A stretch of 18,746 bases of DNA from a virus (IMGVR_UViG_2778261514_000005), one strand, 5' to 3'. Counted from the first letter of the stretch, positions 2,313 through 11,053 are shown. Made by a program: numbers and translations. The notes: a model not told the origin generated them from the sequence alone.

Positions 2313-2936
2313 TCAGAAACGGTATCCGATCCCAACAATAAACGCATCCGTTCGCCAGTCACCATGACCGGCCACTTCGTACGCAAGGTCAACCACCACC
2401 GTATCCGCCGGATTAAACTGAAGCCCTGCCCCCCATGCCAGCGTCAGATGACGCGCAGAATGACCATCACTGGCAGTGGTGGTCACCCTGACATCCCCCT
2501 GTGTCACTTCATCACGCCGGTAATCCTGAACACTGTCAGACCAGCGGGTGTGCGCCATCCCGGCCATGCCATAAAGGCTGAGCTGCTCACTGACCTGCCA
2601 GACCGGCCCCGCCATCAGGCTCACATAACGGCCACGCAGACTTTCATAATGAAATGCTTTATCCCCGGTCATCGTGGTTCTGCTCTTTTTCGCAGAGGCG
2701 TAACTCAGCGAGGCTATGCCACCCAGATGGTCCGTGAATTCATAACGGTATTTCACGTTGATCCCTTTTAAATCACCTGTACGGGCACCGGTACCGGACA
2801 ATACCGGCACGCCGCCCGGGTGAACCTGAGCATATCCCACGGAAAATGCACCGTGTCCGCCTGCAGCCTGTGCAGGAAAAGTCATTACTGCCGGCAGGGT
2901 GGTAAAAAATAAAATGGCTCCGTATAAATACCGCAT
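2313..2936 (-). CDS. lom: Lom-like outer membrane protein (Ail/Lom family)
   Basis: Track ORF 2313..2975, trimmed to the internal ATG at 2936 (AAAGAGG RBS upstream). That start gives a signal-peptide-like N-terminus MRYLYGAILFFTTLPAVMTFPAQA, and the protein ends in the beta-barrel motif ...GDWRTDAFIVGIGYRF. It is close to lambda Lom as I recall it and occupies the lambda position between J and stf. Confidence 0.85.
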   Translation of the reverse strand: MRYLYGAILFFTTLPAVMTFPAQAAGGHGAFSVGYAQVHPGGVPVLSGTGARTGDLKGINVKYRYEFTDHLGGIASLSYASAKKSRTTMTGDKAFHYESLRGRYVSLMAGPVWQVSEQLSLYGMAGMAHTRWSDSVQDYRRDEVTQGDVRVTTTASDGHSARHLTLAWGAGLQFNPADTVVVDLAYEVAGHGDWRTDAFIVGIGYRF

Positions 2937-8510: not shown

Positions 8511-9209
8511 TTACTGCGAAAGTTTATTAATGGAAAGGAAACCGCCAAAATTAACCGCCATGCCGCGCATCTCACACCCGCGCATGTATTTACTGCATCT
8601 GTCCTTCCGGATATCCGTGGTGGGGTTGTCGAACTCATCCGCCACTGCCGGACCGTTATACCCGCATTCATCGCCCCGGTAATCCCACATACAGGTGTTC
8701 GCCAGCATGATGCGACCGGGAAACAGCGCCCCGTCCGTCTCCGTCGGTGTCGCCAGCACAAACGAGGCCGTCATGGCTGTCAGCGATGACATCTGCTCCA
8801 CCACCCACCGGTCCGTCAGCTCCTGCTCCGGGTCGGCCTCCGGATTCCCCGCCACAAAATTCACCGCATCCAGAAAACGGGCATACACCCGGCGGCGGAC
8901 CACCGTGGCACCCACCAGGCTCTGCAAATCCTCCGCCATCCCGGTGACAAGGCCGAACAGATTGGACACCGTCAGCGACGGGCGGGCACTGCTGCCCTTT
9001 CCGTTCATCTCAAAGCCGCTGCCCTCAATCGGGTACGCCTCATACTTCCGCCCCTGCCAGGTCACCGGCTCCCCTTTTTCATTCAGCTCATTGCAGAAAA
9101 AATACCGCTCACCGCCCTGCACCGTCAGGTCGATTTCCCAGAGCACCACCCGCGGTGACTGCTCTGATTTAACCGACTCGTTCAGGCTTGCTTCGTGAAT
9201 ATCCTGCAT
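8511..9209 (-). CDS. L: Minor tail protein L
   Basis: Track ORF 8511..9251, trimmed to the ATG at 9209 (MQDIHEASLNE...). VVLWEIDLT..GGERYFFCNE.NEKGEPVTWQGR.Y..YPI.GSGFE.NGKG ... NFGGFLSINKLSQ is near-identical to lambda gpL as I recall it. Confidence 0.9.
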   Translation of the reverse strand: MQDIHEASLNESVKSEQSPRVVLWEIDLTVQGGERYFFCNELNEKGEPVTWQGRKYEAYPIEGSGFEMNGKGSSARPSLTVSNLFGLVTGMAEDLQSLVGATVVRRRVYARFLDAVNFVAGNPEADPEQELTDRWVVEQMSSLTAMTASFVLATPTETDGALFPGRIMLANTCMWDYRGDECGYNGPAVADEFDNPTTDIRKDRCSKYMRGCEMRGMAVNFGGFLSINKLSQ

Positions 9210-9341
9210 ATATCCGCCCATAAAAAAGGGGCGCAACCGCGCCCCGAACAATAAAAGTCCAATTTAAAATAAAACCAATAAAGGTAATAACAGAAAGTTA
9301 AATCAGCATATGCCAGATGGCAATTGCTGATTGCAGTGACC

Positions 9342-9362
9342 AATGAAAACACTGTTTTCATT
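9342..9362. other. 21-bp perfect palindrome aatgaaaaca-c-tgttttcatt downstream of the porin gene
   Basis: Read directly from the sequence as a 10+1+10 perfect inverted repeat, about 60 nt past the porin stop in an AT-rich spacer. It could be a dimeric-protein binding site or a weak terminator stem. Confidence 0.4.
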
Positions 9363-9418
9363 GATACAGACCGCCTGTAAGGGCAGACGGCCTGTAACCA
9401 TTAACTTACCAGCAACAA

Positions 9419-10513
9419 TCAGAACTGATAAGTCATACCCACAGCAACAATATCATCTGTAGTAATACCGGCTTTCTGAGTAAATTTGTTTTCGTCAATC
9501 AGGTTAATTTTATAATCAACATAGGTAGACATATTTTTGTTGAAGTAATATGTTGCTCCAACATCAATATATTTAACCAGGTCCTGATCCCCATAGTTTT
9601 TCCCACCAACTATAACCTCCTGCCCACGAGACTGCAGGAATGCCAGTGATGGACGTAAACCAAAATCAAACTGATATTGCGCTACAGCTTCAACGTTTTC
9701 TGCCTTATCCGCAATGCCGTTAACCTTATCGCCAAAAGCCGTCATATTTTGGGTCTCTGAATATATTGTCGCAATATACAGATTATTGGCATCATATTTC
9801 AGACCAGCCCCCCACATTTCAGCATATTTACCACTGGCAACAGAGCTTCCTCCATTAACCTGCTTATCAGTACGGTCAGATTTCGTGTACGCCGCTACGA
9901 GACCAAAACCATCAAACTCATAGCTGGCTGAGAAACCATACCCATCACCATTGGCCTTCTGGAGGTCATCGCGCTCATTTTTGCCCTGATACTGCGCCGC
10001 AAAATTCAGACCATCAACCAGCCCAAAGAAATCTGTATTACGGTAGGTCAGAACTCCGGAAGTTCGGGCAGTCATAAAGTTATCGGTCTGAGTCCAGCCA
10101 TCACCACCAAACTCTGGCAGTACGTCAGTATATGATCCGACATCGTAAGCAATACCGTAGTTACGACCGTAATCAATGCTACCAACATCAGCAAATCTCA
10201 GACCTGCAAATGCCAGACGGGTTTTATTTCCCGCGGAACCTTCAGATTCCGTTTTGTTACCAGAGAACTGGTATTCCCACTGACCAAATCCGGTCAGTTG
10301 ATCATTAATCTGCGTTTCGCCTTTAAAGCCGAGACGAGCGTAAGTCTGATCTCCGTCATTACCTTTATCATCCGAGAAGTAATGCAGAGCGGTTGCACGC
10401 CCGTAAAGATCCAGTTTATTACCATCTTTATTATAAACTTCTGCTGCCTGCGCCCCCGCAGCAAACATCACTGCAACTGCTACAGCAGAAAGTGCCACTG
10501 TCATTTTTTTCAT
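9419..10513 (-). CDS. General porin of the OmpC/OmpF/PhoE (GBP) family, prophage-encoded cargo gene
   Basis: 364-aa track ORF with signal peptide [23 protein letters not shown]. Mature N-terminus [15 protein letters not shown], internal ...VLPEFGGD...[22 protein letters not shown]... and C-terminus ...[18 protein letters not shown]......AGI.TD.IVA.G..YQF with terminal Phe are classic enterobacterial porin signatures. Codon usage is visibly more AT-rich than the flanking tail genes. Confidence 0.9.
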
Positions 10514-10711
10514 GATTTAATCCTTATTTAAACTGAACTATTCATGCATTCAGATGTCATGAACAAAAATTAAAATATTTTAATACAAATTCTTAGTTCA
10601 ATTTATATTACGTAACAAAATGTAAATACAGGATCGATTTCGCACTTTCTGACAAGACAGATTAAAAATAATTAACAACTAAACAATAAAGAATGATTTA
10701 TAGGATAATTC
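10514..10711 (-). promoter_or_regulatory. AT-rich upstream region of the porin gene; probable own promoter with an OmpR-box-like motif
   Basis: ~200-bp AT-rich spacer between the M stop and the porin start. Minus strand contains TTTACATTTTGTTACGTAAT (plus coordinates 10607-10626), which resembles the ompC OmpR C1 box as I recall it, and possible -35/-10 pairs such as TTGTTA ... TAAGAAT. AAGGA RBS sits 8 nt before the ATG. Confidence 0.35.
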
Positions 10712-11053
10712 TCATCTAACTACCTGCTCTATCGTGCAACTGAAATCACTGTACCGGGCGTTATCCGTAATACTCCACTCCCGGCACACCACCCTGACCG
10801 TCCGGTTATGTTTCGGGGGCTTCCACAAAAAAGCCCGGTAACCACCATGCCATGACAGAAACGCGGACAGTGCCTCCCGCTCAGCATCCGTTGTCACCCG
10901 AAAAACCACCTGAAAGGTCTTCAGTTGCGCATTCAGTCCTGCCGGACGACGCTGCTGATAACCGTCGCCAAACTTCACCGTCATCACCGACGGTTTCTCC
11001 GTCACCTGCATCCCTTCCCGGGGACACCAGTGAAGGGTCTTAATCTCATCCAC
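10712..11053 (-). CDS. M: Minor tail protein M
   Basis: 113-aa track ORF. ...VKFGDGYQQRRPAGLNAQLKTFQVVF...FLSWHGGYRAFLW.PP... matches lambda gpM as I recall it. Start overlaps the H stop by 8 nt. Confidence 0.85.
   Translation of the reverse strand: MDEIKTLHWCPREGMQVTEKPSVMTVKFGDGYQQRRPAGLNAQLKTFQVVFRVTTDAEREALSAFLSWHGGYRAFLWKPPKHNRTVRVVCREWSITDNARYSDFSCTIEQVVR

Follow-up and report, generated by a model that had tools for sequence, protein, structure and literature searches.

An OmpR-type box upstream of a porin gene located between the M and L tail genes in a lambdoid Escherichia coli prophage

A porin cassette in the tail region

The genes of the window, by which we mean the whole analyzed stretch of 18,746 nucleotides, all lie on the minus strand and make up the tail region of an E. 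coli prophage of the lambdoid type. In RefSeq the gene order reads tape measure, 'phage tail protein' (M), 'porin OmpC', 'minor tail protein L', K, I, J, an Ail/Lom protein and a tail fibre. The porin gene and its surroundings comprise the following features.

10712..11053, minus strand: tail gene M
9210..10711, minus strand: cassette of 1.5 kb, occupying the interval from the M stop to the L start
9419..10513, minus strand: porin gene, 364 aa, of the NmpC/Lc/OmpD clade, named 'porin OmpC' in RefSeq
9246..9418, minus strand: conserved structured 3' untranslated region, with three hairpins and a conserved unpaired stretch containing TTATTACCTT
9228..9245, minus strand: intrinsic-terminator-like hairpin GGGGCGCGGTTGCGCCCC with a T run after it, 18 nt ahead of the start codon of L
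8511..9209, minus strand: tail gene L

The GC content of the cassette ranged from 23 to 50%, against 55-65% in the flanking tail genes, and the stem of the terminator was invariant in all variants of the cassette that we collected. With its location between late genes, promoter-like hexamers, terminator and deviant GC, the cassette has the appearance of a phage 'moron'. The encoded protein was 61% identical to K-12 OmpC over its full length (E 6e-155), and its closest relatives, at 70-73% identity, were prophage porins of the nmpC/lc type (71-73%) and OmpD-type porins encoded on the chromosomes of Citrobacter, Enterobacter and Salmonella (70-72%). The porins encoded by nmpC (prophage DLP12) and lc (phage PA-2) are likewise phage-borne and belong to the same clade, but nmpC adjoins the Q/lysis region whereas the cassette porin lies between tail genes M and L, and the 50 nmpC/lc-type loci had another context and another promoter.

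The 1.9 kb around the box described below was 100% identical to the chromosomes of several Shiga-toxin-producing isolates. At a coverage of at least 80%, the same M-porin-L arrangement was shared by 69 of the 5426 complete E. coli genomes searched, and it recurred in 34 further loci. Among deposited phage genomes we did not find the cassette, the only porin there being of the nmpC/lc type (at most 73% identical), and in the literature we found no description of a porin cassette at this M-L position.

In the carrier strain S19-651 (L001, NZ_CP075852.1) the portal gene was split by IS600 and the tape measure gene was annotated as frameshifted, with the porin gene intact, and this prophage looks defective. 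In locus L004 the cassette lay among IS66/transposase remnants, with tail genes present in fragments only. Together, these two cases suggest that the porin is kept once the phage decays. A further cargo gene encodes an outer-membrane protein of the Ail/Lom family; it comes after J, the tail tip gene, and is placed like lom in phage lambda (window ~2313..2936, minus strand, calculated by offset from L001 5114..5737); downstream of it, the carrier genome (L001) has a gene for a YadA-like adhesin.

Sequence of the box and its match to OmpR sites

The initial annotation had noted an OmpR-box-like motif on the coding strand within 10600-10630, upstream of the porin gene. The top-scoring site of our matrix scans fell inside this range, where the coding-strand sequence tgtaTTTACATTTTGTTACGTAATataaa occupies 10626..10607. 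Counted from the porin ATG (10513), the site extends from 113 to 94 nt upstream.

10626..10607, minus (coding) strand: OmpR-type 20-bp site TTTACATTTTGTTACGTAAT, the top matrix site
10626..10617, minus strand: half-site a, TTTACATTTT
10616..10607, minus strand: half-site b, GTTACGTAAT

The resemblance to the C1 box of ompC noted in the initial annotation proved accurate, in that TTTACATTTTGAAACATCTA is present in the K-12 ompC upstream region and its first 11 nt are identical to those of the window site; over the whole box, 14 of 20 positions were identical to C1. Identity to the ompF box F1 (TTTACTTTTGGTTACATATT, K-12) was higher, at 16 of 20, and the sequences of the ompF boxes F1-F4 were confirmed in the K-12 upstream region. 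Like C1 and F1, the box consists of two 10-bp half-sites in tandem, 20 bp in all, and it has the orientation of C1 and F1 on the coding strand. Half-site C1a was identical to half-site a of the box (TTTACATTTT) and half-site b was of the F1b type (GTTACATATT vs GTTACGTAAT), so that the box in effect combines C1a with a half-site of the F1b type. OmpR sites are characterized by direct repeats of a 10-bp half-site, phased at 10 bp and sharing a (G/T)(T/A)(T/A)AC(A) core, and this is the arrangement that we observed. The OmpR site of csgD (GTTACATTTAGTTACAT) offers another parallel, both it and the window site (TTTACATTTTGTTACGT) being near-perfect tandem-repeat copies. Sites of the csgD type can serve both OmpR and RstA, and the gene class and promoter context of csgD differ from those of the cassette.

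We compared the box with the OmpR repeat derived from published ChIP-exo data, GTTACATTTTGTTACAT (PMC5438342), and found that it matched 15 of the 17 positions. It was the sole match in the window with three or fewer mismatches, 0.04 being expected, and its two mismatches were fewer than those of all in-vivo sites examined except csgD. We then scored the window with two matrices. Matrix 1 was made from the seven footprinted ompF/ompC sites and gave the box 17.05 bits, which was rank 1 of 37,454 window positions and above the in-sample scores of F3, C2, C3 and F4; 25 of 2000 shuffles of the 198-nt intergenic region (77% A+T) reached this score. When C1 was removed from the matrix the box still ranked first, with 67 of 2000 local shuffles reaching its score. 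When both C1 and F1 were removed, it ranked second and 28% of local shuffles reached its score, in a matrix so much weakened that the test loses power.

Matrix 2 was made from non-porin sites. From Seo et al. we retrieved the sequences under eight of the stronger ChIP-exo peaks, using the coordinates given in the supplement of PMC5438342. One of them, flhDC, contained no good match and was left out. For the other seven (ompX, csgD, dtpA, yedS, queE/yqcG, alx and narU) we used the best repeat-like site, which in every case was close to the centre of the peak. This matrix gave the box 18.5 bits, compared with 18.3 for C1 and 13.9 for F1, and again ranked it first in the window, where the next-best position scored 10.4 bits. 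Seven of 5000 local shuffles of the intergenic region reached the score of the box, as did 2 of 953,638 background positions drawn from ~480 kb of DNA from other enterobacteria. As a control, upstream regions of OmpC-/OmpF-type genes of other genera scored 11-19 bits with matrix 2, while those of PhoE-type and OmpN-like genes had medians of 6.3 and 2.8 bits, respectively. The comparison with OmpR matrices that the initial annotation had proposed thus placed the box at the top of the window with both matrices, and not below background. That OmpR sites are degenerate and AT-rich is a caveat on this match.

In a scan with a half-site matrix, the coding-strand half-sites at offsets 0 and +10 scored above all others in the window and in variants L090, L003, L004 and L005; in variant L108, the half-site at +10, GAAACAAAAT, scored like C1b. 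The same scan found no additional in-phase half-sites up- or downstream of the box in any variant. A search at 10-bp phase detected no three-site array resembling C1-C2-C3 and no convincing distal site resembling F4. Three contiguous 20-bp sites define the ompC/ompF type of promoter and not the OmpR site as such; csgD, dtpA and ompX have one or two.

Conservation, promoter geometry and the choice of regulator

We took diverged M-porin-L cassettes from E. coli genomes and IMG/VR contigs, in which identity was 80-100% for the porin and 49-100% for the M protein. Mean intergenic identity across the promoter variants was 68%, and that of half-site a was 92%. The invariant intergenic blocks were TCTT (10657-54), AAAGTG (10648-43), TTTACAT (10626-20), ATTGAA (10602-597), AATATTTT (10579-72) and the Shine-Dalgarno region. 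The TTTACAT of half-site a was kept in all six sequence variants of the cassette promoter, and the variants of half-site b were limited to GTTACA, GTTACG, GTTGCA, CTTACA and GAAACA. These are forms that authentic OmpR half-sites take, GTTACA and GAAACA being the two classical ones. The box variants were as follows.

Window and commonest E. coli class: TTTACATTTTGTTACGTAAT
Second variant: ..GTTACATAAT
Third variant: ..GTTGCATTTA
Fourth variant: TTTACATCTTGTTACATTAA
Fifth variant: TTTACATTCTCTTACATTTT
GAAACA class: TTTACATTTTGAAACAAAAT

In the L108 class, which has the GAAACA form, the box equaled ompC C1 over 16 nt. The box was located at -113 to -119 from the ATG in all M-porin-L loci that include upstream sequence.

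Half-site b also carries a natural G/A polymorphism at 10611. The window and the commonest E. coli class (L181) have GTTACG, and L182, L090 and L091 carry the consensus GTTACA allele. The G allele creates an 8-bp palindrome, TTACGTAA, at 10615..10608 on the minus strand, and with matrix 2 the G of the window in place of the consensus A cost ~4 bits relative to the GTTACA allele. In one genome (643348545, IMG/VR), a cassette of the GAAACA class was present on each of three separate prophage contigs, L110, L114 and L115, always with the same box, TTTACATTTTGAAACAAAAT.

The intergenic region is 77% A+T, between ~0.1 and 3% of composition-matched shuffles reached the score of the box depending on the matrix (far more with the weakened matrix), and the specificity of OmpR is loose (PMC3586657). 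Such observations would be expected if no regulator were involved and the T/A-rich stretch had been kept as an UP-element-like sequence, for DNA curvature or as a target of H-NS-type silencing, its likeness to OmpR sites being a by-product of composition. The conserved positions, however, were the C and the flanking bases of the TTTACA/GxxAC cores and not generic A/T tracts, half-site b alternated between exactly two known OmpR half-site forms, and both the 10-bp phasing and the distance to the -35-like hexamer were fixed. From this pattern of conservation, a box that answers to no regulator seems decidedly unlikely.

Around the box, the alignment of variants delineated a putative promoter and leader.

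10643..10657, minus strand: block TCTT...AAAGTG, invariant among the seven aligned variants and lying 17-31 nt upstream of the box
10596..10601, minus strand: predicted -35-like hexamer TTGAAC, 5 nt downstream of the box
10572..10577, minus strand: predicted -10-like hexamer TATTTT, within the invariant AATATTTT
10514..10564, minus strand: predicted 5' leader, with conserved GTTCATGAC, TGAA, GTTC and the Shine-Dalgarno sequence AAGGA

Every class showed the same order of box, exactly 5 variable nt, TTGAAY, 16-18 nt and TATTTT, with ATTGAA invariant in the seven aligned promoter variants. The spacer between the -35 and -10 hexamers was 18 nt in the window and 16 nt in the L005 class. The hexamers are weak, with 8 of 12 consensus matches, and were not picked up by a promoter scan. 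From the start of the site to the -35 hexamer we counted 25 nt in the window (one site + 5), compared with 65 nt in K-12 ompC and ompF (3 x 20 + 5). The 5-nt gap to the -35-like hexamer is the same as for C3 and F3, the start site in the window being a predicted one, and relative to the conserved hexamers the box would occupy the promoter-proximal register of C3/F3. A transcription start predicted near G10564 would place it at about -62 to -43. C1 and F1, which the box resembles in sequence, are the distal, high-affinity members of three contiguous sites, whereas the window box is single and proximal. The rest of the ompC and ompF promoters is non-homologous to the cassette promoter. We also considered whether the promoter had been inherited from nmpC/lc-type or OmpD-type relatives, or from K-12 ompC/ompF, and rejected this, as the upstream regions shared the box only.

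Two other possibilities for the region were examined and set aside. TTTACA as a -35 hexamer, as in lacP, had no conserved -10 at 16-18 nt in the alignment of variants, and a by-eye comparison of the AAAGTG/TCTT block with the consensus sequences of CRP, PhoB, ArcA and IHF was unconvincing. The reverse complement of this block, GCACTTTC, equals the end of ompF F3.

The closest precedent is nmpC, the porin gene of the DLP12 prophage, which is bound by OmpR in vivo (PMC5438342, supplementary tables 1-2, citing Coll et al. 1994). Under the in-vivo ChIP-exo peak lies CTTACATCTTGAAATA, an OmpR-type element ~90-110 nt upstream of the ATG, as in the cassette. Nevertheless, the nmpC promoter is non-homologous to that of the cassette, and the nmpC site lies downstream of the transcription start and is repressive (PMC5438342), whereas the cassette box lies upstream of the hexamers. 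In K-12 the nmpC peak is centred at +43 and its effect is repression (PMC5438342), so activation of the cassette promoter is not guaranteed. OmpR could conceivably bind the box as a repressor, as at nmpC and ompF F4, acting on a promoter further upstream (TTGTCA/TTGACA, 10655..10650) or as a roadblock or silencer of the late operon. The upstream -35-like hexamer is part of the TCTT...AAAGTG block, where it reads TTGTCA (10655..10650) in the window; it was partly conserved and was a perfect TTGACA in L004 and L108. No conserved -10 was found at 16-18 nt past it, however, whereas the hexamers downstream of the box (ATTGAA and AATATTTT) were invariant, are separated by 16-18 nt and begin at the canonical distance of 5 nt from the box. 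These conserved downstream hexamers favor activation over repression, and we give the repressor reading little chance.

The box might also be used mainly by a paralogous regulator of the OmpR family, either instead of or besides OmpR itself, the candidates being RstA (PhoQP-RstBA, acid/low Mg) and CpxR (envelope stress). CpxR reportedly regulates ompF and ompC directly. Its motif is TTTAC-N4-8-TTTAC (GTAAA-N5-GTAAA) (PMC13353760), and the window, with TTTAC-N5-GTTAC, matched 9 of 10 positions; in the variants, though, the second repeat was GTTAC, GTTGC, CTTAC or GAAAC and never TTTAC, so that a full CpxR box did not occur. The RstA box is TACATNTNGTTACA, with tandem TACA (PMC4117788), and RstA and OmpR motifs resemble each other and overlap at csgD (PMC4117788, PMC7315122). 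The window sequence TACATTTTGTTACG fitted 11 of the 12 specified positions of the RstA box, and the L090/L182 allele (GTTACA) fitted all 12. Against RstA, the L108 class has GAAACA, a classical OmpR half-site (C1b, C2b, F2b), and is two mismatches from the RstA box; the L005 class likewise has two mismatches, and the GAAACA and CTTACA classes fit OmpR better. Against both paralogues, the gene is a porin gene and the box stands, relative to the predicted hexamers, in the exact C3/F3 register. Sequence alone cannot separate RstA from OmpR, but we consider it rather improbable that one of the paralogues is the main user of the box.

The presence of the motif is confirmed, and by its sequence, phasing, orientation, predicted register and conservation the box fits well among OmpR sites. 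The proposal of the initial annotation, that the prophage porin is wired to the host EnvZ/OmpR system, is likewise supported at the level of sequence. That OmpR binds, that it activates, where transcription starts and what shape the response curve takes are inferences from these comparisons. On balance, the porin cassette is probably a self-contained unit with one near-consensus OmpR site, at which a single OmpR~P dimer activates a weak sigma-70 promoter. One phosphorylated dimer of host OmpR would bind the box and would activate the promoter (TTGAAC-18-TATTTT), and a lysogen would make the phage porin whenever EnvZ/OmpR is active. That a single dimer would suffice is suggested by the half-site scan, which found no further in-phase sites, and a single OmpR site can reportedly activate the ompC promoter (Maeda & Mizuno 1990, cited in PMC2883594). 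With a single site near consensus, like C1/F1, and with no array or F4-like site, the promoter would have a low OmpR~P threshold and no reciprocal ompF/ompC switch; it would fire at low OmpR~P and stay on at high OmpR~P. For the same reason (one site, no array, no F4-like site), 'OmpR-dependent' is better supported as a description than 'osmoregulated like ompC/ompF'.

Possible small-RNA links and biological meaning

We also analyzed the transcribed regions on either side of the porin coding sequence. The predicted 5' leader had a mean pairwise identity of 0.78, versus 0.68 across the intergenic region. Pairing of this leader with MicC and MicF was no better than with shuffles (z -0.3 and -1.2), and the control pairs behaved as they should (ompC-MicC z -4.3, ompF-MicF z -5.2). 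Within the porin coding sequence we identified one further candidate small-RNA site.

10493..10501, minus strand: ACAGTGGCA, complement of the RybB 5' seed, in porin codons 4-7

The RybB seed is GCCACTGC, from a RybB sequence that was checked in K-12. The same ACAGTGGCA is present in K-12 nmpC, which is a reported RybB target, and GCAGTGGCA is present in the ompC and ompF leaders. The predicted RybB pairing had z ~ -2.3 (p ~ 0.03).

The fold of the 3' untranslated region comprised 41 predicted pairs, of which 7 showed compensatory changes among 6 variants. An RNA called IpeX, which comes from the 3' untranslated region of nmpC/lc and sits downstream of nmpC, reportedly lowers OmpC/OmpF (Castillo-Keller et al. 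2006). One IpeX target is ompC mRNA (PMC3333887). Both nmpC and the cassette have a long structured 3' untranslated region that ends in a GGGGCG...CGCCCC terminator, and in its unpaired stretch and tail the cassette region matched, in short collinear segments, the sequence that follows nmpC in K-12. Window 9222..9418 (minus strand) may encode an IpeX-like RNA. When the 3' untranslated region was paired with the start regions of ompC and ompF the duplexes had z ~ -3, a value that is unspecific, since the leader of the cassette's own porin scored the same. Against Rfam, no part of the window reached the gathering score of any family, and the cassette had nothing beyond a chance-level hit at E<=1.

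In the course of these comparisons we observed that the K-12 nmpC segment before the terminator (L179, ...CCTTCTGTTATATATTACCCTTTATTTT) is complementary to ompC -32..+13 (L002), a target that includes the Shine-Dalgarno sequence and the MicC target region. The predicted duplex had an energy of -26.9 kcal/mol and z -5.2, and 0 of 300 shuffles reached it. The original IpeX paper reportedly described no complementarity, so that of nmpC and ompC may merit a second look.

These elements could be combined into a more far-reaching proposal, which we regard as doubtful and put forward as speculation, namely that the M-L cassette is a 'porin replacement module' hijacking three layers of host porin control: OmpR, the RNA of the 3' untranslated region and RybB. 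The first layer would be a minimal one-dimer OmpR promoter that evolved independently, and not from the promoters of ompC, ompF, nmpC or ompD, with half-site-b alleles that would set different OmpR~P thresholds in each phage lineage. In the second, the structured 3' untranslated region would lower host OmpC/OmpF upon transcription of the phage porin, like the IpeX of nmpC/lc. In the third, the RybB seed site would keep the phage porin subject to a brake that responds to envelope stress. Host porin, phage replacement and an anti-host-porin RNA would then be turned on together by OmpR, possibly removing the receptor of competing phages.

A prophage porin under OmpR is already known from nmpC (PMC5438342), and it is the case of the M-L cassette that is undescribed. 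That phage cargo genes plug into host regulators is an established principle, which the cassette extends and in no way overturns. If OmpR drives the promoter, a phage-encoded outer-membrane channel would be under the control of a host envelope-sensing two-component system. The cassette would also provide a natural minimal one-site OmpR promoter, in which the half-site-b alleles would help in studying how affinity relates to response threshold. Cassettes of this kind are located in the lambdoid-prophage tail operon of Shiga-toxin-producing and other E. coli, and further genomes hold diverged versions. In such strains, the composition of the surface would be altered under gut-like conditions of high osmolarity and acid pH, with consequences for permeability to antibiotics and bile, for phage receptors and for antigenicity.
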